Positions 1 to 63,343 of a stretch of DNA of 64,000 bases are shown in pieces. How positions within the stretch are numbered: the stretch's first letter is position 1; the number at the start of each line of letters is the position of its first letter. The translations under genes were made by a program, and so were the position numbers. The stretch lies in NCBI GenBank assembly GCA_964509975.1, contig CAZDZO010000001.1, forward strand, positions 4,006 through 68,005, read 5' to 3'. This DNA comes from an uncultured Candidatus Peribacteria bacterium. Its GTDB lineage: Bacteria > Patescibacteriota > Gracilibacteria > UBA4473. Under the pieces are notes generated by a model. The model did no database searches and was not told where the DNA came from. It worked only from the letters and a program-made list of their open reading frames with translations.

Positions 1-326
1 TGACCTGGGTTGAAATTGCAAAAGTAGCCACCAAGTTACACCAACTCAAACAACAATTTTTATTGTCCGTGTTAACCGACCCCCAAGGTATGGTCGCGCA
101 TCTCAAAAAAACTCTGCCAGACATAATTCCGGCAATTGATCAAACTTGGGAACAGGTTCAAGACCGCATCGCCAATGCTGATGACCGAGAAAAAGGGGCG
201 ATTACTGCTTCTGTGATATTAAGTTTAATTCCTTTGGGAAAGATTGACAAAGCCAGCAAGCTTACTGTTTGGGTCGGCGACATCGCCGGAGCACTTAATA
301 AATTTGTCCCGCAATCCGTTCGTTAA
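1..326 (+). CDS. hypothetical protein, C-terminal fragment entering from the window edge
   Basis: The frame of ORF 63..326 has no stop back to nt 3, so the gene probably begins upstream of the window. No motif recognised. Confidence 0.35.
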   Translation, partial: TWVEIAKVATKLHQLKQQFLLSVLTDPQGMVAHLKKTLPDIIPAIDQTWEQVQDRIANADDREKGAITASVILSLIPLGKIDKASKLTVWVGDIAGALNKFVPQSVR

Positions 327-1423
327 ATCTCAATTTTCTGCACAGGATGGGAGAAGTTTTCGAAATGAGACTCGTGTGTAGTCGTAAAAAATATCTGAGA
401 TTCGTTGCAGAGATTTTCCAAATAATTCTGACGCGATTGGTCAAGTTCTGAAAACACATCATCTAGAAGGAGAATCGGGCTCGGTCCGCCAAGCGCTTTG
501 AGAATGTGCTTTTGTGCGGCCAGCATCGCCAACATCACCGACCGTTCTTCCCCTCGTGAAGCGGTGGAAAGAATGGGTTTGTCACGATAATAAAATACAA
601 AGTCATCACGATGAGGTCCGAAAAGACATTTTCCTGCTGCCTGTTCTCGGGCTGAATTTTTGGTAAAGAAATCGAGTACAAACTCTTTTGTCATTTCTGA
701 AGAAGTAAAAACTTCCGCTATTTCAAGTCTCACCTCGATCGTGTCAGTTGTTCGTGAGAGGCCTTGCAGTTCCTTTTGGAGTAAGGGGTTTAGTTCTGCA
801 AGAAACTCTTGTCTCACCTGCACCAAAAGCGGAATAGTCTCTGCTAGGATTTTGTTCCACGGGGCAAGTAAACTGGGATCCGGATCCCACCCCGGATTCG
901 GATCCGAAGTCGGATCCGGATCCCGAAAGGATTTCAAAAGAGCATTTTTTTGCTTCAAGGCACGATTGAACTTCATGAGATTCTCGCGGTAGTGAGGAGA
1001 GATTTGAAACAAAAATCGATCAAAGAATCGTTGTCGATTTCTTTTGGTTCCCGAGAACAACATCAAGTGCTCAGGGACAAAAAGAAGTGTCGGGATTTTT
1101 CCAAAGTGCTGACGAAGGGAAACTTTCTTAGCGTTTTTTTCAAATACGCGAGAACGGGGCGCTATTTTTGCTTCATATAAGTTTCCATTATCGAGTGTTG
1201 CTTGAATGACTCCTGTTCCAGCCTTGGAATTTTCTCGAATCAAATCTTCGCTACTGGTTTCTCTCCAACTTTTGCCCACACTTAGAATTGAGAGAGCTTC
1301 TAGGATATTCGTTTTTCCTTGTCCGTTCCCCCCATAAAAAACCACATTTTTTTCGGTAAATTCAAAATGTTTTTCTTCGTAATTCCGGAAATCAAAAAGG
1401 GAAAGTTTCTCTATCATTGTCAT
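323..1423 (-). CDS. recF: DNA replication/repair protein RecF, carrying a 16-aa repeat-derived insert
   Basis: N-terminal Walker A 'VVFYGGNGQGKTNILEALS' and C-terminal 'ILLLDDVFSELD', typical of RecF. ATG at 1423. Confidence 0.9.
   Translation of the reverse strand: MTMIEKLSLFDFRNYEEKHFEFTEKNVVFYGGNGQGKTNILEALSILSVGKSWRETSSEDLIRENSKAGTGVIQATLDNGNLYEAKIAPRSRVFEKNAKKVSLRQHFGKIPTLLFVPEHLMLFSGTKRNRQRFFDRFLFQISPHYRENLMKFNRALKQKNALLKSFRDPDPTSDPNPGWDPDPSLLAPWNKILAETIPLLVQVRQEFLAELNPLLQKELQGLSRTTDTIEVRLEIAEVFTSSEMTKEFVLDFFTKNSAREQAAGKCLFGPHRDDFVFYYRDKPILSTASRGEERSVMLAMLAAQKHILKALGGPSPILLLDDVFSELDQSRQNYLENLCNESQIFFTTTHESHFENFSHPVQKIEI
876..923. repeat. GGATCC-family palindromic element, 48-nt long form, in frame inside recF
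   Basis: GGATCCGGATCC-CACCCCGGATTC-GGATCC-GAAGTC-GGATCCGGATCC. 45/48 nt identical to the intergenic copy at 2095-2142. Confidence 0.9.
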
Positions 1424-1442: not shown

Positions 1443-1469
1443 GAGTTCGAACTCTAAGAGTTCGAACTC
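1443..1469 (+). repeat. REP-like doublet GAGTTCGAACTC-TAA-GAGTTCGAACTC
   Basis: Two perfect 12-nt palindromes separated by TAA, about 10 nt past the RAYT stop. The same doublet occurs at 2023, 7095 and 7592. Confidence 0.85.
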
Positions 1470-1479
1470 GGTATCAGTA

Positions 1480-2013
1480 TTATTCGAAATAGGGATTAAA
1501 TTCCAATTCATTGGGATACGTATCCGGACCATAGATCGCTGGCACATAGGAAGAATATTCCCATTCCTCTGGCTTGCGCACAATGTCATGTTTCACTGCA
1601 TTCCATTCGATGTATTGTTTGAGTTGAAGAATATAGTCTGAATCATCAGCAAGCTTGGCTTTAAATTTTCCTTCAAAGACGAGCCCTTTCCCCTCTTTAT
1701 ACCGGCTACTAAAATACGCTGCATAGGCTTGCTGAAGTTTCCTCATAAATACCGATATTTGTTCTGCTGTTTTGGGATCCGGATCCGGGGTCGGATCCGG
1801 ATCCCGTTCCAGAAGCAAAAAATGAAAATGATTTGGCAATAAACACCAAGCATATATTTCGATGTGTGGACAATTCTTTTTGAAACGGGCGATATTGTCA
1901 TAAAAACGCTCGTAATCTCCATGACGAAAAAAGAGTTTCTGCTTATCACATCCCCTATTGTATATGTGATAGAGATTGTTTTTTTCGAAAACGAGAGTTC
2001 TGTTTGCTGACAT
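1480..2013 (-). CDS. REP-associated tyrosine transposase (RAYT; IS200-like Y1 HUH family, COG1943-like)
   Basis: HUH motif in 'YAWCLLPNHFHFLLLE' and Tyr helix 'QYIEWNAVKHDIVRKPEEWEYSSY'. Single gene flanked by REP doublets. Contains a 10-aa DPDPTPDPDP repeat insert. Confidence 0.8.
   Translation of the reverse strand: MSANRTLVFEKNNLYHIYNRGCDKQKLFFRHGDYERFYDNIARFKKNCPHIEIYAWCLLPNHFHFLLLERDPDPTPDPDPKTAEQISVFMRKLQQAYAAYFSSRYKEGKGLVFEGKFKAKLADDSDYILQLKQYIEWNAVKHDIVRKPEEWEYSSYVPAIYGPDTYPNELEFNPYFE
1514..1525. repeat. 12-nt perfect palindrome GGATACGTATCC (TACGTA-core variant)
   Basis: Identical 12-mer at 7158-7169 and 29225-29236. Here it encodes DTYP near the RAYT C-terminus. Confidence 0.7.
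1775..1804. repeat. GGATCC-family element, 30-nt short form, in frame inside the RAYT gene
   Basis: GGATCCGGATCC-GGGGTC-GGATCCGGATCC. Confidence 0.9.
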
Positions 2014-2022
2014 ATTTACCTA

Positions 2023-2044
2023 CGAACTCTAAGAGTTCAAACTC
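2023..2044 (+). repeat. REP-like doublet, 5'-truncated (CGAACTC-TAA-GAGTTCAAACTC)
   Basis: Lies about 10 nt upstream of the RAYT start and matches the right three quarters of the doublet. Confidence 0.75.
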
Positions 2045-2094: not shown

Positions 2095-2142
2095 GGATCC
2101 GGATCCCAGCCCGGATTCGGATCCGGGGTCGGATCCGGATCC
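2095..2142. repeat. GGATCC-family element, 48-nt long form, intergenic
   Basis: GGATCCGGATCC-CAGCCCGGATTC-GGATCC-GGGGTC-GGATCCGGATCC. Confidence 0.9.
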
Positions 2143-2160
2143 GAATCTGAACCAAACATC

Positions 2161-2211
2161 AAAAAAACCCCACTCGAGTATATATCCTCGAGCAGGGTTT
2201 CTTCTTTTTTT
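2161..2211. terminator. bidirectional hairpin terminator candidate downstream of the S-layer gene
   Basis: AAACCC..CTCGAG-tatatatc-CTCGAG..GGGTTT stem, flanked by an A-run on one side and a T-run on the other. Confidence 0.45.
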
Positions 2212-2264
2212 CATTCAGCGGAGACATAGTGCTCCTCTCTGACGAAGTAAAGTTTTCTCACCTT

Positions 2265-2294
2265 GGATCCGGATCCCCAAGGGGATCCGGATCC
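2265..2294. repeat. GGATCC-family element, 30-nt short form, intergenic
   Basis: GGATCCGGATCC-CCAAGG-GGATCCGGATCC. Confidence 0.9.
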
Positions 2295-7094: not shown

Positions 7095-7122
7095 CAGTTC
7101 GAACTCTTTAGAGTTCAAACTG
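7095..7122 (+). repeat. REP-like doublet CAGTTCGAACTC-TTTA-GAGTTCAAACTG
   Basis: Degenerate copy of the doublet. It overlaps the last four codons and the stop of CDS 7108..7578. Confidence 0.75.
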
Positions 7123-7578
7123 TTTGCAAAATTTCTCAATTTCTGTTTTTGAGTTTGGGATACGTATCCACCTCGAATCCGAAATTTCCGACGCTTCCTC
7201 TTCCCCAAAGTTCTCAATAATATCTACGCTCACCTGCACAGACTGTTGCAAGTACTCCAAAGACTGCTTTGTTTCCTTGAGCGCATTCGCCGTTTTCATT
7301 ACCGATCCCTCGATTTTATTAAATCGCCGACTGCCTTCTCCTGCTGTTTGGGATAAATCTGTTTTTAATTTCTGAAGTTTTTTTTCCAAATACACTTGCC
7401 GTTGTTCGAGCTCTCCCACTTTAGTCTTCTCTAAAAATTCCCCCAAAAGTCCCACCTCCTCACGCTCTGGTTCCAAAAATGCTTGCGCTTTCTGCCAAGA
7501 AGACGAAATGTCAATATATTGAGAAAGCACTATTCCAATCGTGATAAAAAAGACAAGCACAAAAAGTCGTTTGATCAT
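7108..7578 (-). CDS. membrane-anchored coiled-coil protein, paralogue A
   Basis: 'MIKRLFVLVFFITIGIVLS' TM anchor followed by a coiled-coil-like body. Paralogous to 7629..7985. The C-terminal ~30 aa are encoded by repeat sequence. Confidence 0.6.
   Translation of the reverse strand: MIKRLFVLVFFITIGIVLSQYIDISSSWQKAQAFLEPEREEVGLLGEFLEKTKVGELEQRQVYLEKKLQKLKTDLSQTAGEGSRRFNKIEGSVMKTANALKETKQSLEYLQQSVQVSVDIIENFGEEEASEISDSRWIRIPNSKTEIEKFCKQFEL
7158..7169. repeat. GGATACGTATCC palindrome inside the 3' end of CDS 7108..7578
   Basis: Exact 12-mer, read as WIRIP. The downstream ~14 nt weakly resemble the long-form GGATCC element. Confidence 0.6.
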
Positions 7579-7591
7579 TCTTATTTTTTAA

Positions 7592-7618
7592 GAGTTCGAA
7601 CTCTAAGAGTTCAAACTC
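7592..7618 (+). repeat. REP-like doublet GAGTTCGAACTC-TAA-GAGTTCAAACTC
   Basis: Sits between the two tandem paralogues. Confidence 0.85.
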
Positions 7619-7628
7619 GAAATGCAAA

Positions 7629-7985
7629 CTAGAATCCCAAACTATCCTTTGTTTTTTCTGTCGATTCTTGCAGGTTTTCAATAGCTTTTTGCGTGTCTTC
7701 GATTGCCTGCTTTGTCTCCATTACAGAAGTTTCTATTTCTTCAAATTTCGCTGTCCCTTCTTCGACTTTTGCCTCAAGAGACTTTGTCAGTGTTGATAAT
7801 TTTTTTTCTAACTTTTCTTTCTGACTCAAAAGTTCTTTAATCTCAATATCTTTAAAAAGCTCCACGCCAAATTCATTTTCCAAAAAAAGCTGAGCCTTTT
7901 TCCAAGCCCCTTCTAAGTCCACATTATTTGACATCAAAATTCCGCCCCCGATCAAAACCAGAAGTACGAATAGTCTTTTTATCAT
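7629..7985 (-). CDS. membrane-anchored coiled-coil protein, paralogue B
   Basis: 'MIKRLFVLLVLIGGGILMS' TM anchor. Alignable with 7108..7578 over the N-terminal ~110 aa. Confidence 0.6.
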   Translation of the reverse strand: MIKRLFVLLVLIGGGILMSNNVDLEGAWKKAQLFLENEFGVELFKDIEIKELLSQKEKLEKKLSTLTKSLEAKVEEGTAKFEEIETSVMETKQAIEDTQKAIENLQESTEKTKDSLGF

Positions 7986-8315: not shown

Positions 8316-8366
8316 GCCTTCATAATTGTGAAGGGCAAAAAAACAAAAGGCAAATTCTTTTATTTT

Positions 8367-8396
8367 GGGATCCGGATCCGAGGTCGGATCCGGATC
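8367..8396. repeat. GGATCC-family element, 30-nt short form, intergenic
   Basis: GGATCCGGATCC-GAGGTC-GGATCCGGATCC. Confidence 0.9.
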
Positions 8397-8405
8397 CCAA
8401 AATAT

Positions 8406-13828: not shown

Positions 13829-14079
13829 AGGGAATTTCGGGTAGTTTTTAAGTGTTCTTTTTTGACGTATCTAAATCCTGTTGAACGGCTATCCCCCGTG
13901 ATTTCTTCGTCCGAAGAACAGGAGCGCGAAGAACCCTTTTGGGGAAGTAGATCGCGTCGTTTTTGTTTTAACGTTGAACGTTATCAACTAATTAAGTAAC
14001 AATTCGAGATGGTACCGTCCCGCCTGTCGGGGCTCTCGTGAAGATTCCCTTCGCTTATTTTTTGTTTACAATATCTTGT

Positions 14080-17000
14080 ATGAAAAACATTTTTCCCTCG
14101 TTCGACCCTCAAAAATCAATTGCTGAACACGAAACCGATATTTTGAAGTTTTGGAAAGAAAACCAAATTTTTGAAAAATCTGTTAATCGTCGTGCCAAGC
14201 GCAATGAATTCGTGTTTTTTGATGGGCCTCCGTTTGCAACGGGAACACCGCATTATGGACACATACTAGCGGGAGCAATTAAAGATGTGATTCCACGGTA
14301 CAAAACCATGCAAGGATACCGCGTCAATCGAAAATGGGGATGGGATTGCCACGGAGTTCCGGTGGAATTTCAGGTGGAAAAGGAACACCGCATTGGTGGA
14401 AAACCGGGTATTGAAAAAATGGGAGTTGGGAAGTTTAATGAACTCTGTCGAAGTGTCGTCTTGCGATGTGCTGACCAGTGGGAATCAACCGTTGATCGCA
14501 TGGGACGATTTGTGAATTTCAAAGACGATTACAAAACCATGGATCCCGAATTCATGGAATCGGTCTGGTGGGTTTTTGGGGAATTATGGAAAAAGGGACT
14601 CATTTATGAAGGAGAAAAAGTGGTCTCCTATTCTCCGAAGCTCGGAAGTCCTCTTTCTAATTTTGAAGCAAATTTAAATTATAAAGATATTGATGATCCA
14701 GCGGTAACAGTAAAGTTTGAGCTAACAGAAGAATCGAAAACATATTTCTTAGCTTGGACGACGACCCCTTGGACGCTGTTATCGAATTTAGCCTTAGCGG
14801 TGAATCCGAAACTCGAATATGTGAAGGTAAAAAACGAAGAATCTGGAGAAAGTTATTGGCTCGGAAAAGGCGTACTTGAAAAATACGGCATCACTCAAGA
14901 GGGAGAATATACGGAATTTTGGAACGAAGTTGAACGACGAAAAGGAAAAGATCTCATCGGAAAATCTTACACGCCACTTTTTCCTTTCTTCGAGAATCAT
15001 GAGAATGCCTTCCAAGTTCTCTCGGCTGATTACGTGTCGGCAGAAGAGGGGACGGGGATCGTTCATCAGGCCCCGAATTTCGGGGAAGACGATGCCAAGG
15101 CCTGTCATGAAAATAACATTGGACTTCTTGAAAATCCGATTGATGAGCATGGATTTTTTAATGACAAAATTACTGAACTCAAGGGAAAATATTTTCGAGA
15201 TGATCCGGAAGTAGAAGGTTCCGTGGATGACAATGCAAACAAGTGGGTCCTTGATAATTTGGGGACGAAACTCTTTATGAGAAATCAAATTCGACACTCC
15301 TATCCACACTGTTGGAGAACAGATTCTGCATTGATGTATCGAGGAATTAAAACGTGGTTTGTTGATGTGCAGAAAATTAAGAAAACTATTTTAGAACAAA
15401 ACCAAAACATTAATTGGGTGCCAGAACATTTGAAAGATGGTCGATTTGGGAAGATGCTTATTGATGCTCCGGATTGGGCGATTAGTCGAAACAGATACTG
15501 GGGAACTCCAATTCCTGTGTGGCGATGTGACGCGTGTGGAGATATCGAGGTGATGGGATCGCGCGCAGATCTTGAGAAAAAAATTGATAAAAAAGTTGAG
15601 GATCTCCATAAACATTTTGTTGATGATATGGAGTGGGGATGTGCGAAATGTAAGGGGAAAATGAAACGTATCGAGGAAGTGCTCGACTGTTGGTTTGAGT
15701 CTGGGGCGATGCCGTATGCGAGTCAGCATTATCCGTTTGCGAACAAAGAAAAGGATGTTGAACTTCGAGAAGTAAAAACAACGAAAGACTGGGAAACGTA
15801 TCATGAGCTTGTAAAAACCGAACTTTTTGAAAGACTTCTTCCTTCTCTTGTTTATGACAAAAATTATCCTGATGGAATAAACCCAAAGACCGTTTCCAAA
15901 ATCTTGTTTTTGAAAGATGAACCGATTGGAGTTCTTTCCTATGGTCCCGCTGATGCATATAATTCATTGAAAGAATATGCCCCCAAGGATTCTCTCTTTT
16001 TACGATTCATCGCTATCAAGAAAGAGTTTCAAGGCAGAGGATTCGGTCACTCCGCCATAAAAGATTTCAAAAGTTTCGGTTACGAAAATAATTTTGAAAA
16101 TTTAATTTTAAATTCTGCTCCTGGTGCCGTAGGGTTTTATGAAAAACATGGATTTGAAAAGGATTTTTGGACAGGACATGCTGAAACAAATCCTGAAAAC
16201 ACCCCTTTTGGAAAAAAATCTGAAATCGAAAATCTGAAATCGAAAATTGCCGATTTCCCGTCTGCTGACTTCATTGCCGAGGGACTCGATCAAACACGTG
16301 GATGGTTCTACACCCTGCATGTTTTGGGATGCGCGTTGTTTGGAAAAAACATCTTCAAGAACGTGATTACCAATGGAATCGTCTTGGCAGAAGATGGACA
16401 AAAGATGTCCAAGTCCAAGAAGAATTATCCAGATCCAAATATTATTTTTGATAAATACGGAGCGGATGCGATGCGATTTTATATGCTCAATTCTCCAGTT
16501 GTAAGAGGAGAGAATTTCAGGTTCGCCGAGAACGGTGTCGCTGAAGTATTGAAACAAATCATCTTGCCACTGCGTTCGAGTTATCAGTTTTTCTCGACCT
16601 ACGCGAACATCGATAATTGGCAACCAACCAAGTTTCTCTTTGTTCGGCACGGGGAAGGCGACCATAATGTCGCTCATATTTATTCTGGAGATGTGAAGAA
16701 CAAACATCACCTGACAGAGAAGGGTCGAGCACAAATTACCGAAACCGCGAAACACATTCGAAATTTTGATGTCCTTGTTGCATCTCCTTTCATTCGAACA
16801 CAAGAGACCGCTGAGATTCTGAAAAAAGAATGTAAATTTGAAGGCGAAATTATTACTGACGATCGAGTGCGAGAACTCTTTTTTGGAAAACTCGAAGGCA
16901 AGCCCTTCCTTCCAAAAACAGAACGACTCTCAAATAAAGAAACCGAACAACCTGAAGCGGTGGCAAAACGAGTGTCTGAATTCATGTCCGATATGGCGCA

Positions 17001-18219
17001 GAAATATCCAGGAAAAACGATTGCTGTCGCAAGTCACGGAGGTGCTGTTTTGGAAGCGATTGCGATGACCAATCGTGTACCGCACGGGACAGAAGATTAC
17101 TTGCGAGTCTTCCAACCGCCTACGGGAACCGAAACCGTCGTGTTCGCCGAACCCGTTCCTCAGACCGAACTCGATCAATGGATTTTGTCTGAACTACAGA
17201 CCCTCATCGAGCAATACAAAAATCATTTCGATGCCTACGATTTAGAAGGAGCGTTGAAACTGATTCCTGGATTTATTGATAACCTAAACAATTGGTATTT
17301 GCGTCGTTCTCGTCGTCGATTCTGGGCACCTGACATGAGTGAAGAAAAACAATCTGGGTACGAAACGCTTCATCACGTACTCTTCATGGTGTCGAAAATA
17401 TTGGCCCCTGTCTGTCCATTTTTCGCGGAAGATTTGTTTCAGAAACTCGCACATGGAGAATCTGTTCACCTTACCTTTTTCCCTTTTGCGAAAAAAGAAT
17501 GGCAGAATGAAAAGATTGAAGACAAGATTCGTCTTTCTCGAGAAATCGTAAGTTTGGCCGCTGGAATCAGGGCACGAGCAAAGGTAAAACTCCGACAACC
17601 GCTTGAGAAATTACAATTCATGACCACGGACAAGGCGAACCTCGATCTTGATATTTTAAAAGAAGAGGCCAATGTAAAAGCAGTGGAACAACTCACTTCT
17701 GTTGAAGGTTTGGCTGATCGTGTTGTCCGCGTTAATGCCAAAAAAGTTGGCCCACGTCTCGGAAAAAAAGTGCAAGAAATCATTGCGAAAGGAAAATCTG
17801 GCGACTTTGAACTTTTGAAAAATGGAGATGTGAAAATTGCGGATGAGATTCTTACGGGTGAAGAATTTAGTTTTGGATTCGTTTGTGAAGAAGGGGTAGA
17901 AGCCGAAGCCACCGCTCGAACCGTAGTTATTCTCAATACAGAAATTTCTGAAAATTTGAAGTTGGAGGGATTCTCCCGAGAAGTTATTCGAGCCATTCAA
18001 GAGCTTCGAAAGAAAAAAGATTTCGATATCGCTGATCGTATTTCGATCCGGTACGCTACCGACTCGATTGCAATAAAAGACGTGTTCAAAACGTTTGAAT
18101 CGCTCATTGCTGGAGAAACTTTGGCTGAGGAAATAATTCATGGAGAGGTCAGTGATCCACTCGAAGAGCTCGATGTCGATGGGGAGAAACTGACGTTGGA
18201 GATTGCAGTAGTGGAGTAA
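14080..18219 (+). CDS. ileS: isoleucyl-tRNA synthetase with two inserted enzymatic domains
   Basis: HIGH motif 'PHYGHILAG', KMSKS motif 'GQKMSKSKKN', 'WAISRNRYWGTPIPVW' and 'AEGLDQTRGWFYTL'. ATG at 14080 ('MKNIFPSFDPQK') is preferred over the GTG at 14038. Total length about 1379 aa, versus the roughly 1000-1050 aa I expect for this IleRS type. Confidence 0.93.
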   Translation: MKNIFPSFDPQKSIAEHETDILKFWKENQIFEKSVNRRAKRNEFVFFDGPPFATGTPHYGHILAGAIKDVIPRYKTMQGYRVNRKWGWDCHGVPVEFQVEKEHRIGGKPGIEKMGVGKFNELCRSVVLRCADQWESTVDRMGRFVNFKDDYKTMDPEFMESVWWVFGELWKKGLIYEGEKVVSYSPKLGSPLSNFEANLNYKDIDDPAVTVKFELTEESKTYFLAWTTTPWTLLSNLALAVNPKLEYVKVKNEESGESYWLGKGVLEKYGITQEGEYTEFWNEVERRKGKDLIGKSYTPLFPFFENHENAFQVLSADYVSAEEGTGIVHQAPNFGEDDAKACHENNIGLLENPIDEHGFFNDKITELKGKYFRDDPEVEGSVDDNANKWVLDNLGTKLFMRNQIRHSYPHCWRTDSALMYRGIKTWFVDVQKIKKTILEQNQNINWVPEHLKDGRFGKMLIDAPDWAISRNRYWGTPIPVWRCDACGDIEVMGSRADLEKKIDKKVEDLHKHFVDDMEWGCAKCKGKMKRIEEVLDCWFESGAMPYASQHYPFANKEKDVELREVKTTKDWETYHELVKTELFERLLPSLVYDKNYPDGINPKTVSKILFLKDEPIGVLSYGPADAYNSLKEYAPKDSLFLRFIAIKKEFQGRGFGHSAIKDFKSFGYENNFENLILNSAPGAVGFYEKHGFEKDFWTGHAETNPENTPFGKKSEIENLKSKIADFPSADFIAEGLDQTRGWFYTLHVLGCALFGKNIFKNVITNGIVLAEDGQKMSKSKKNYPDPNIIFDKYGADAMRFYMLNSPVVRGENFRFAENGVAEVLKQIILPLRSSYQFFSTYANIDNWQPTKFLFVRHGEGDHNVAHIYSGDVKNKHHLTEKGRAQITETAKHIRNFDVLVASPFIRTQETAEILKKECKFEGEIITDDRVRELFFGKLEGKPFLPKTERLSNKETEQPEAVAKRVSEFMSDMAQKYPGKTIAVASHGGAVLEAIAMTNRVPHGTEDYLRVFQPPTGTETVVFAEPVPQTELDQWILSELQTLIEQYKNHFDAYDLEGALKLIPGFIDNLNNWYLRRSRRRFWAPDMSEEKQSGYETLHHVLFMVSKILAPVCPFFAEDLFQKLAHGESVHLTFFPFAKKEWQNEKIEDKIRLSREIVSLAAGIRARAKVKLRQPLEKLQFMTTDKANLDLDILKEEANVKAVEQLTSVEGLADRVVRVNAKKVGPRLGKKVQEIIAKGKSGDFELLKNGDVKIADEILTGEEFSFGFVCEEGVEAEATARTVVILNTEISENLKLEGFSREVIRAIQELRKKKDFDIADRISIRYATDSIAIKDVFKTFESLIAGETLAEEIIHGEVSDPLEELDVDGEKLTLEIAVVE
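15754..16248 (+). other. GNAT N-acetyltransferase-like domain inserted in the IleRS catalytic core
   Basis: 'LFLRFIAIKKEFQGRGFGHSAIKDF' (the Q/RxxGxG/A acetyl-CoA motif) and 'APGAVGFYEKHGFE', lying between the IleRS blocks 'HYPFANKE' and 'ADFIAEGLDQTRGWFY'. Confidence 0.8.
16627..17166 (+). other. histidine phosphatase (PGAM/cofactor-dependent mutase superfamily) domain inserted in IleRS
   Basis: 'FLFVRHGEGDHN' (RHG motif), 'LTEKGRAQ', 'VASPFIRTQETAEIL', 'ELFFGKLEGKP' and 'IAVASHGGAV', lying between 'FFSTYANIDNW' and 'LDQWILSELQ'. Confidence 0.8.
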
Positions 18220-20188: not shown

Positions 20189-21439
20189 CTAAGTTCTGAT
20201 CTGAAAGATCTCTGCCGAATTTGGATTGGCAAGGAGTCTATTTTGTAAAACCTTATCGACCGTTTCTTTTGAAGCTTCTTTGAAGTTCCAGCATCGGAAG
20301 ATACGAACTCTTACCTCTGTATCAAACATTGTTGAAAGCTTCTCACTAAGCGCCACCGCTGAGTCGTCTTCAAAGGGAAGGACTGCATATTTGAATTCAA
20401 CGGATCCGGATCCCGACTCAATAAGCACCTCTTTATTTGGGTTATAAATCAATCCAGATTCAAACAATTTTTTCTTGGGATCCGGATCCCCTTCAACTTC
20501 AATTTCATACAAGAAAGATTTTTCAAATTCTATTTTTTCACCCGCAATATTGCTGGCAGTTTGTGAAACAGAAAAAGCTTCGTTATCCGTGATAAGGAGT
20601 TTCTTTTCCATCACAATCGCAACTTCTTTAAGTTCTAGAGTTGGTGTTTCTGGAACTTCAACTTTACTAAAATCTCCAATTTCAACACTTTCCGGAGAAC
20701 GTCCTGCTTTAATCCATTCGTTCATTGATTTCATAATCTGGTCTCCATCACATGAAGCATAAAACCGCTCAGGATGGGGCATAATCGCACCCACTGTTCC
20801 CTCCTTGTTTACTATCATTGCGGTAGCGAAAAGAGCTCCGTTTGGAGTAATTGGAAAATTTGCGTCGACATTTCCTTCCTCATCACAGTATCGGAACGCC
20901 ACTTGACTTCCTTCTTCAAGAACTCGTAAAGCTGTTTTATCAATTGATGTGAATCGTCCTTCTCCATGTGCCACTGGCACCTTCAATAATTCTGAAACGT
21001 TATGAGAAAACGCCGTATCTTTTCGTTCTGGTTTGATATTTACCCACACATTGTAGTACCCCGTTCCGAGTACTTTTCCTTCCTTGTCTCGGCGAACATT
21101 GTCGGCGAGCGAGAATGGCACAGGGTTGTCTCCGACCGGAATCAATCCTGATTCTACAATCATTTGAGCTCCATTACACACCCCAAGAATCACTTTTCCT
21201 TTCTTGGCTTCTTCTCGAATAGCGTCGAATATTTTTTCTCGTGCGGCAATTGATCCTGATCGTCCTCGATCTTCAAATGAAAATCCTCCAATCAAAAAAT
21301 ATGCATCAAAGTTTCCTATTTTTTCAATTTCGTTCCAAAGCACGAGTTCTGCTTCAAATCCATTTCTTTCTGCCGCACGAATAGATTCTGATTCGCAATT
21401 ATTTCCAGGGAACGTGATAACGGCAAGTTTTGGGGTCAT
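20189..21439 (-). CDS. purQ: FGAM synthase glutaminase PurQ fused to two tandem PurS-like domains
   Basis: ATG at 21439 ('MTPKLAVITFPGNNCE'). 'LGVCNGAQMIV' holds the Cys nucleophile; 'AHGEGRF' and 'MPHPER' are also present. C-terminal ~165 aa contain two PurS-like repeats, ending 'GLIYNPNKEVLIE' and 'LLANPNSAEIFQI'. The longer ORF-track N-terminus overlaps rmuC and is rejected. Confidence 0.8.
   Translation of the reverse strand: MTPKLAVITFPGNNCESESIRAAERNGFEAELVLWNEIEKIGNFDAYFLIGGFSFEDRGRSGSIAAREKIFDAIREEAKKGKVILGVCNGAQMIVESGLIPVGDNPVPFSLADNVRRDKEGKVLGTGYYNVWVNIKPERKDTAFSHNVSELLKVPVAHGEGRFTSIDKTALRVLEEGSQVAFRYCDEEGNVDANFPITPNGALFATAMIVNKEGTVGAIMPHPERFYASCDGDQIMKSMNEWIKAGRSPESVEIGDFSKVEVPETPTLELKEVAIVMEKKLLITDNEAFSVSQTASNIAGEKIEFEKSFLYEIEVEGDPDPKKKLFESGLIYNPNKEVLIESGSGSVEFKYAVLPFEDDSAVALSEKLSTMFDTEVRVRIFRCWNFKEASKETVDKVLQNRLLANPNSAEIFQIRT
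20402..20413. repeat. single GGATCCGGATCC unit in frame (GSGS) in the PurS-like region
   Basis: Exact 12-mer. Confidence 0.8.
20478..20489. repeat. single GGATCCGGATCC unit in frame (DPDP) in the PurS-like region
   Basis: Exact 12-mer, 64 nt from the unit at 20402. Confidence 0.8.
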
Positions 21440-47649: not shown

Positions 47650-47679
47650 GGATCCGGATCCCCCTAGGGATCCGGATCC
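47650..47679. repeat. GGATCC-family element, 30-nt short form, between convergent rny and trmB (likely a bidirectional terminator hairpin)
   Basis: GGATCCGGATCC-CCCTAG-GGATCCGGATCC. Its last base overlaps the trmB stop codon. Confidence 0.85.
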
Positions 47680-61719: not shown

Positions 61720-61794
61720 GCCGTCATAGCTCAGTGGTAGAGCACGACCATGGTAAGGTCGGGGTCTTGGGTTCAAATCCCAATGACGGCTCCA
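61720..61794 (+). tRNA. tRNA-Thr (anticodon GGU), CCA encoded
   Basis: Hand-folded cloverleaf: acceptor GCCGTCA/TGACGGC, D arm GCTC..GAGC, anticodon stem CGACC/GGTCG with loop ATGGTAA, T arm TTGGG-TTCAAAT-CCCAA. Confidence 0.92.
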
Positions 61795-63268: not shown

Positions 63269-63343
63269 TCCCGGGTAGCTCAGTGGTAGAGCAATTGGCT
63301 GTTAACCAATTGGCCGCCGGTTCGAATCCGGCCCCGGGAGCCA
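63269..63343 (+). tRNA. tRNA-Asn (anticodon GUU), CCA encoded
   Basis: Hand-folded cloverleaf: acceptor TCCCGGG/CCCGGGA, anticodon stem ATTGG/CCAAT with loop CTGTTAA, T arm GCCGG-TTCGAAT-CCGGC. Confidence 0.92.

Follow-up and report, generated by a model that had tools for sequence, protein, structure and literature searches.

The DNA-repair gene recF of a Peribacteria-like bacterium contains a 48-nt palindromic element that is very probably repeat-derived, translated and tolerated by the protein. It was found in a 64-kb stretch of DNA, hereafter the window, whose nearest named relatives are Candidatus Gracilibacteria/Peribacteria. The element occupies positions 876-923, reads GGATCCGGATCC CACCCC GGATTCGGATCC GAAGTC GGATCCGGATCC, exactly as quoted in an earlier note on this DNA, and encodes residues 168-183 of RecF (DPDPTSDPNPGWDPDP). 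It is a dispersed repeat, probably a member of a family of very short hairpin elements that is specific to this lineage and resembles repetitive extragenic palindromes (REPs) and Rickettsia palindromic elements (RPEs).

A repeat-derived block in RecF

On re-reading, the minus-strand open reading frame (ORF) at 323..1423 runs without a stop codon through the element (...NALLKSFR-DPDPTSDPNPGWDPDP-SLLAPWNKIL...). The copy reported at 2095-2142, identical at 45 out of 48 positions, does lie in non-coding DNA, with no credible gene over that stretch. The three mismatches all fall within the two 6-nt spacers, and both copies have the same GGATTC variant in the middle module. Allowing up to one mismatch, the window has 16 occurrences of GGATCCGGATCC, compared with 0.07 expected from shuffles, and 0 out of 100 shuffles reached this count; 14 of the occurrences are exact.

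The stretch flanked by KQKNALLK and PWNEIL is hypervariable in the RecF alignment. RecF orthologues at ≤65% identity have a short, non-repetitive loop of 9-12 ordinary residues, and solved RecF structures align across the site with a loop of 6-10 residues, that of Thermoanaerobacter RecF being short. These plain loops in distant orthologues and structures bear out the claim that the block derives from a repeat and is not ancestral RecF sequence. The same block was also sought in orthologues from genomes without the repeat family, and none was found to carry it.

Short perfect palindromes are able to confuse assemblers, which raises the question of an artefact or chimera at the repeat. The identical 16-residue block, however, is present in RecF proteins on 9, 2 and 1 contigs (NCBI, JGI, ENA and Logan, four independent sources), among them a 98%-identical variant and a 360-kb contig. 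This recurrence across assemblies excludes a chimera. Moreover, eight species have conserved the reading frame and the codons on either side, and we give an artefact virtually no credence.

Integrity and structure of RecF

The recF product scores 284 bits against NCBIfam TIGR00611 (cutoff 172), an equivalog-level match, and has the signature and Walker B/D-loop motifs and the RecF fold. Both Walker A (GGNGQGKT) and LLLDDVFSELD were found in the translation, as previously noted. The ratio of nonsynonymous to synonymous substitutions (dN/dS, Nei-Gojobori) is 0.05-0.09 against seven relatives, and recF is therefore under strong purifying selection. With intact motifs, this low dN/dS and a confident structural model, the gene can indeed be described as interrupted yet not inactivated. 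Use of the alternative code of Gracilibacteria (code 25) was rejected, since table 11 leaves long ORFs intact and the standard code therefore holds here.

An AlphaFold2 model of RecF was built on 27 homologues. It has a mean predicted local distance difference test score (pLDDT) of 90.5, and Foldseek superposes it on 5Z67, 5Z69 and 2O5V with template modelling scores of 0.82-0.87. In the model, helices 143-167 and 183-223 are separated by a coil at 168-182, which corresponds to the insert and is alone in having low confidence (pLDDT ~58 against 90 elsewhere). From this position, the insert is predicted to form the turn linking the pair of long antiparallel helices in lobe II, the RecF arm. RecF is an SMC/Rad50-like head without the coiled coil (PMC12192639). 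The turn would thus correspond to the topological point from which the SMC/Rad50 arms emerge, and may be a naturally permissive place. The earlier note had anticipated a clean 16-residue indel on a surface loop. The tip loop between helices agrees with that expectation, but no empty site exists in close relatives, so that the indel cannot be called clean.

Palindrome families and their distribution

The repeats extend across the Peribacteria-like clade: five families were distinguished in the window and its relatives, each based on a short perfect palindrome: A (GGATCCGGATCC), B (GGATACGTATCC), C (GAGTTCGAACTC), D (AACCCGGGTT) and E (AACCCCGGGGTT). The window contains three self-palindromic 12-mer families (A, B and C). 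Family-A units have the layout 12+6+12 (30 nt) or 12+6+12+6+12 (48 nt), and those of families B and C the layout 12+TAA+12 (27 nt); solo 12-mers also occur. The family-D element spans 43 nt, with a conserved non-repetitive spacer, and recurs at different loci. With units of 27-48 nt in many copies, these elements have the size and abundance of REPs (stem-loops of 20-40 bp, many copies). Their hairpins have predicted energies of -30 to -44 kcal/mol (z of about -5 to -9), with the 30-mers at -30 to -36 kcal/mol; the recF element would fold, as RNA, into a nested 22-bp hairpin (-43.7 kcal/mol, z = -5.3). Relatives, designated here by L numbers, differ in their dominant family: D in L068, where it occurs 20 times in 21 kb, C in L070/L079 and L071, E in L075/L080 and B in L077. 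Palindrome density approaches 1 per kb in some of them.

The arms of the elements differ at only 2 out of 192 positions, compared with 17 out of 48 in the loops (P = 1e-11). Near-invariant arms next to variable loops point to sequence-specific recognition of the arms, beyond mere base pairing.

We examined the location of the elements in 112 kb of DNA from relatives with gene calls, 90.8% of which is coding. Intragenic elements numbered 32 out of 65, while 28 were intergenic and 5 lay over gene ends. As the intergenic elements are found in 9% of the DNA, intergenic sequence is enriched about 8-fold per nucleotide. In the window, four out of seven family-A loci are intergenic. Intragenic copies are read in essentially one frame per family (SSNS, DTYP, NPGS and DPDP), which yields hydrophilic, turn-forming residues. 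This use of a single hydrophilic frame is a signature of selection on the translated peptide.

The frame preference also bears on whether the element is translated at all. Ribosome hopping or mRNA removal could produce a RecF without the 16 residues, and the recF copy, apart from its very stable hairpin, begins and ends with the same GAT CCG codons, which might act as take-off and landing sites. Ribosome bypassing has precedents in T4 gene 60 and the mitochondrial 'byp' elements. However, intragenic copies are always stop-free and frame-keeping, which neither bypass nor excision would need, any more than a single hydrophilic frame per family. Decayed copies unable to form a hairpin also remain in frame, as in L068, making this alternative extremely unlikely.

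One intergenic element (8364-8401), together with its flanks, is identical at 38 out of 38 positions in L073, a non-syntenic 79.5-kb contig. It is therefore a discrete unit that has been copied to unrelated locations. L073 was one of three loci retrieved in a metagenome scan with a GRRGTC spacer; the other two, L072 and L074, are unrelated (GGATCC)n-rich sequences. A scan of the genome collection with the 12-N6-12 pattern gave 66 matches, 65 of which were low-complexity coding sequences of high-GC actinomycetes and myxobacteria. The only relevant one was L025, a Peribacteria metagenome-assembled genome. Scans of viral contigs for families A and C returned nothing relevant, and a phage link was discarded.

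The PurQ/PurS-like gene contains two solo family-A 12-mers placed 76 nt apart and read in different frames (20402-20489; L079:10951-11038). The one read as DPDP (GGGGATCCGGATCCC) is identical at the orthologous site of L079, even though synonymous sites of recF are saturated between the two genomes, which suggests that this 12-mer is maintained at the DNA level. As regards orientation, all six regular intergenic family-C doublets of L070/L079 (42 kb contiguous) have the TTA loop on the recF-sense strand and none has TAA, and three out of four family-C doublets in the window agree. There may be a strand or orientation bias in this family, although some of the sites are orthologous and the counts are not independent.

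Family turnover at orthologous sites

The recF loop was compared at the codon level with seven orthologues of 78-86% identity (L068, L070, L071, L075, L076, L077 and L078). The flanks AAA TCY TTT CAR ... ATY GCN CCN TGG are kept in all seven, and four different families or remnants are found between these conserved flanks (Table 1). The loop is filled in all eight close genomes, by different palindrome families or by decayed remnants, and recF holds up to three or four palindromes in relatives. Since every close orthologue has a filled loop, comparison of these genes marks the site as a recurrent hot spot, which was probably occupied already in the common ancestor of the eight genomes. In L076 (1271-1345), a tandem duplication of 51 nt comprises the loop, its palindrome and flanking codons, so that ELLKSFQDS-SSNSSSNS appears twice; it therefore denotes further instability at the recF site.

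A second comparison is offered by the intergenic junction at which the PKD-domain gene is followed by znr. It is empty in L075, where only about 6 nt lie between the stop codon and a conserved GTTTGC... block, and filled elsewhere: by family A in the window, a C doublet in L070, a D doublet in L068, and a solo C plus a solo D in L071. Therefore, different families have been inserted independently at one narrow site.

These patterns also allow us to weigh a purely local origin of the DPDP block, by replication slippage in, or expansion of, a microsatellite of GGATCC hexamers, or by hairpin-templated repair in recF, independently of the other copies. Tandem GGATCC runs exist in metagenome contigs L072 and L074, in high-GC genomes and in viruses, and the duplication in L076 takes in the recF loop. 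Such a process would not account for the three-module layout, the spacer classes and the single middle-module variant shared by the recF element and its copy at 2095-2142, nor for the 30-nt form at four other loci with its fixed 12+6+12 layout. Other families whose spacers are conserved and not repetitive, the family-D element for example, likewise turn up at more than one locus. A local origin is thus very unlikely. L072 and L074 come from lake metagenomes (GC 0.43-0.45) and are dense in GGATCCGGATCC and (GGATCC)n, with 10 copies in 3.8 kb in L072; they show no other DNA similarity to the window.

Table 1. Palindromic elements and associated genes in the window (positions in nt), and contents of the orthologous recF loop in relatives.
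Feature	Position	Strand	Composition or context	Peptide
recF, 366 aa	323..1423	-	Pfam SMC_N; TIGR00611; intact, purifying selection	
Family-A 48-nt element	876..923		12-mer, 6 nt, variant 12-mer (GGATTCGGATCC), 6 nt, 12-mer; in frame in recF	
Family-C doublet	1443..1469		GAGTTCGAACTC-TAA-GAGTTCGAACTC; between Y1 stop codon and recF start codon	
Y1 (HUH) tyrosine transposase, RAYT-like, 177 aa	1480..2013	-	Pfam Y1_Tnp; 57 nt upstream of recF	
Solo family-B 12-mer	1514..1525		GGATACGTATCC; near 3' end of Y1 gene	DTYP
Family-A 30-nt element	1775..1804		In frame in Y1 gene, directly after HUH motif	DPDPTPDPDP
Degenerate family-C doublet	2024..2044		GAACTC-TAA-GAGTTCAAACTC; ~10 nt upstream of Y1 start codon	
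Family-A 48-nt element	2095..2142		Intergenic; 45/48 identical to recF copy	
Family-A 30-nt element	2265..2294		Intergenic; 3' of SLH-domain gene	
Family-C doublet	7592..7618		Intergenic	
Family-A element	8364..8401		Intergenic; TTTG and CAAA complementary flanks; directly 3' of PKD-domain gene	
Solo family-A 12-mer	20402..20413		Inside PurQ/PurS-like gene	GSGS
Solo family-A 12-mer	20478..20489		Inside PurQ/PurS-like gene; base-identical in L079, absent in L080	DPDP
Family-A 30-nt element	47650..47679		Intergenic; between convergent RNase Y and TrmB-like genes; followed by T run	
recF loop, L070 and L071			GAGTTCGAACTC-TAA-GAGTTCGAACTC	SSNSKSSNS
recF loop, L077			GGATACGTATCC-TAA-GGATACGTATCC	DTYPKDTYP
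recF loop, L078			AACCCGGGTT, 23 nt, AACCCGGGTT	
recF loop, L076			AGTTCGAACTCGAGTTCGAACT and 51-nt tandem duplication	
recF loop, L068			Degenerate GATCCAGATTCGATTCCAGACCC; resembles decayed family-A doublet	DPDSIPDP
recF loop, L075			Shortest version	ERPVDPSL

A RAYT-like transposase gene next to recF

The gene adjoining recF, which the earlier note does not bring up, encodes a Y1 transposase (Y1) that scores 31.4 bits against Pfam PF01797 (cutoff 23). Its best and sole NCBIfam match, over the full length, is the REP-associated tyrosine transposase (RAYT, NF047646). H62 and H64 of the HUH motif, Y134 and N138 are invariant in 23 homologues, as expected for a Y1_Tnp protein with its HUH motif and catalytic tyrosine. 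A profile built from these 23 homologues retrieved 4ER8 (Escherichia coli TnpA-REP) alone from PDB (E = 8e-10), and the same search gave no match to the TnpA of IS608 or ISDra2. Judging by these profiles, Y1 appears closer to TnpA-REP than to the TnpA of IS200/IS605. More distant homologues are labelled RayT by JGI.

Y1 is present in one copy in the window and adjoins recF in every relative examined (L068, L070, L071, as a tandem pair, L075, L076 and L077). It therefore looks like a single-copy, vertically inherited, housekeeping-like gene, as is typical of RAYTs.

Y1 is itself decorated with palindromes. The loop that follows its HUH motif is a further hot spot, as is the PKD/znr junction. 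In the orthologues, this loop reads SSNSKSSN, DTYPKDTYP, NPGSENGEPG or QPRGSEDPGV, and in the distant RayT-labelled homologues and 4ER8 it is short. Palindromes tightly bracket the ORF in four out of five genomes (the window, L070, L071 and L075), the arrangement that defines a REPtron; the brackets in the window are the family-C elements at 1443-1469 and 2024-2044. L068 has palindromes upstream of and inside the gene, and an internal palindrome is present in all five genomes. Overall, 33 out of 59 elements in these five genomes lie within 1.5 kb of Y1, against 11.3 expected, and the excess is significant in each genome individually. For family A in the window, four out of eight loci are within this distance (P = 5e-4, or 0.005 without the recF copy).

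Contig L073 has its own Y1/HUH gene (7151-7731), with a 26-nt perfect palindrome (TAGGCGCGGTCACGTGACCGCGCCTA) directly upstream and a related 24-nt palindrome in frame inside it, that is, the same theme with another family. In the window, the ORF at 7108..7578, flanked by family C, was considered as a second Y1 transposase and ruled out; it encodes an unrelated small coiled-coil protein.

Origin and maintenance of the elements

We regard it as probable that these are REP/RPE-like hairpin elements that are mobilised by the neighbouring transposase and kept only in permissive loops. Y1 would recognise the hairpins on single-stranded DNA and copy them, preferentially close by, which would explain why its neighbour recF has been struck repeatedly. 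recF would have received a copy at the turn where the two long arm helices meet, translated in the sole frame that gives a hydrophilic, Pro/Asp-rich coil (DPDP...). The copy would persist because the RecF loop tolerates extra residues. Selection would clear all copies, sparing only intergenic ones and those read in a benign frame within permissive loops. The component of this account in which Y1 mobilises the elements in the manner of a RAYT has an even, or slightly better than even, chance of being correct.

Several observations weigh against this interpretation. Transposition was not seen to take place, nor did any single population yield a site polymorphic for the presence and absence of an element. 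Y1 scores below the curated RAYT cutoff of NF047646 (54.5 against 80 bits). Because its brackets in the window belong to family C, only clustering ties family A to it. REP tags are absent: among 84 flanks, GTAG was found in 2, CTAC in 0, CGTC in 0 and GACG in 1. Neither a target-site duplication nor a common insertion motif was found at the recF loop or the PKD/znr junction, and the terminal inverted repeats plus target-site duplication of a miniature inverted-repeat transposable element are likewise lacking at both sites. The loci compared in relatives are all centred on recF or purQ, rather than genome-wide. Finally, perfect arms with diverged loops could reflect a binding site for a host protein.

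This last point belongs to a broader alternative, in which the palindromes, rather than being selfish DNA, are DNA or RNA signals under host selection; their perfection would be due to selection or biased gene conversion, and the coding copies would be by-products. The signals in question would be sites for dimeric proteins, motifs resembling uptake signals or HIP1, or hairpins that terminate transcription or stabilise mRNA. Almost unchanged arms beside variable loops fit this proposal, as do the solo GGGATCCGGATCCC in purQ/S, base-identical in L079 despite the saturation of recF synonymous sites, the intergenic copies directly 3' of genes, some of them followed by T runs, and the high density in some relatives. 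A conserved host factor, however, would not predict wholly different 12-mers at orthologous sites of close genomes, nor clustering near a transposase gene. Copies also decay in some lineages, as with DPDSIPDP in L068, and most lack a following U-run. On balance, we consider host-selected signals improbable. Rfam searches at gathering and E-value thresholds placed no RNA family over the element, with only sub-threshold, hairpin-shaped chance matches. A restriction-modification signal was dismissed, as GGATCC outside the repeats occurs about 10 times against 9.8 expected and this BamHI site is neither avoided nor enriched.

A more far-reaching version of transposase-driven mobilisation can be proposed, which we see as rather unlikely. 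The RAYT-like enzyme and the palindromes would form, in Peribacteria-like CPR bacteria, a long-lived, vertically inherited system that time and again overwrites the same hairpin-occupied sites with the currently active family, using existing hairpins as landing pads, including those in loops of essential proteins and in the transposase itself. If this were true, orthologous protein loops would be continually rewritten at the DNA level, rather than being random hits filtered by selection.

Other features of the window and its relatives

An RNA-like element of about 95 nt is located between the SLH-domain gene and the Y1 gene (2158-2253, minus strand), and it is also found in L068 (9249-9344), L070 (9183-9279), L071 (8452-8549) and L075 (8265-8358). 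Its 5' stem-loop (CUUCGUCAGAGAGGAG...CUCC.CUG) is invariant, and three compensatory pairs are present in its intrinsic-terminator hairpin. It has no Rfam match, and palindromic repeats lie on both sides of it in every genome examined. The only Rfam matches in the window at the gathering threshold are two plus-strand tRNA genes (61720-61791 and 63269-63340).

An isoleucyl-tRNA synthetase-like protein of 1393 residues is encoded at 14038-18219 (plus strand). Its catalytic domain is split by a GNAT acetyltransferase domain (residues 609-708) and a histidine-phosphatase domain (residues 867-1014). Relatives have other inserts in this protein, including DUF559 in L079, and it reaches 1744 residues in L080.

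Implications

These observations extend in-frame palindromic "selfish DNA in genes", described in Rickettsia and some proteobacteria, to the candidate phyla radiation (CPR), whose genomes, about 90% of which is coding sequence, offer scant intergenic space. Many short indels rich in Pro, Asp, Ser or Asn in CPR proteins may have originated from repeats instead of representing functional adaptations, and such indels would affect alignments, phylogenies and structure prediction. Perfect lineage-specific 12-mers are also convenient strain markers, and the neighbourhood of the RAYT-like gene and its palindromes is a compact natural system in which to study substrate hairpins and target choice by Y1/HUH enzymes.

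Comparison with known palindromic repeats

HIP1 (GCGATCGC) of cyanobacteria is also a short perfect palindrome that reaches high density and occurs in coding regions with a frame preference. To our knowledge, it is a single 8-mer, without a hairpin-forming doublet, an association with a Y1 transposase, or discrete insertions relative to orthologues.

RPEs are, according to secondary accounts, dispersed palindromic repeats found in frame in housekeeping genes of Rickettsia that remain functional (Ogata et al. 2000, as cited in PMC10969869 and PMC3733652). The recF element resembles them as an in-frame insert in a conserved gene of a small-genome bacterium, with function kept and an extra surface peptide. 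In these accounts, RPE-1-type elements are about 100-150 bp long and encode 30-50 residues, whereas those described here measure 12-48 nt and encode 4-16 residues. Compared with RPEs by description only, the present elements further differ in that each arm forms a perfect palindrome by itself, several families substitute for each other at one codon position among sister species, a RAYT-like gene adjoins the elements and is itself decorated, and the host belongs to the CPR (Peribacteria-like).

The REP/REPIN-RAYT systems (Nunvar 2010; Bertels and Rainey 2011, PMC3116915; Di Nocera 2013, PMC3733652; PMC5581495) share several features with our elements. These include stem-loops of 20-40 nt in many copies, species-specific families, and a repeat-flanked, single-copy, vertically inherited Y1 transposase. 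REPs lie mostly 3' of genes, a position that intergenic copies also take here; RAYTs behave in a housekeeping-like manner (PMC5581495). Intragenic in-frame copies are likewise on record in several phyla, many of them in replication and repair genes (Di Nocera, PMC3733652; PMC10969869), as are different REPs at about the same recB site in two Xanthomonas species (PMC3733652; PMC10969869). RecF does not appear in the main text of PMC3733652. The elements described here nevertheless differ from REPs in lacking an unpaired GTAG or CGTC tag, in the score of Y1 under the curated RAYT cutoff, and in their perfect self-palindromic 12-mer arms, REP palindromes being imperfect. About half of the copies are intragenic here, compared with a small minority in proteobacteria.

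In-frame palindromic inserts as a general phenomenon are, therefore, already known and not new. We found no report of such elements for Peribacteria in the literature. New here are the CPR host, the extreme shortness of the elements and the doubly palindromic nature of their arms, the very high share of copies inside genes, the systematic replacement of one family by another at orthologous sites, coding as well as non-coding, and a RAYT-like gene that is itself decorated.

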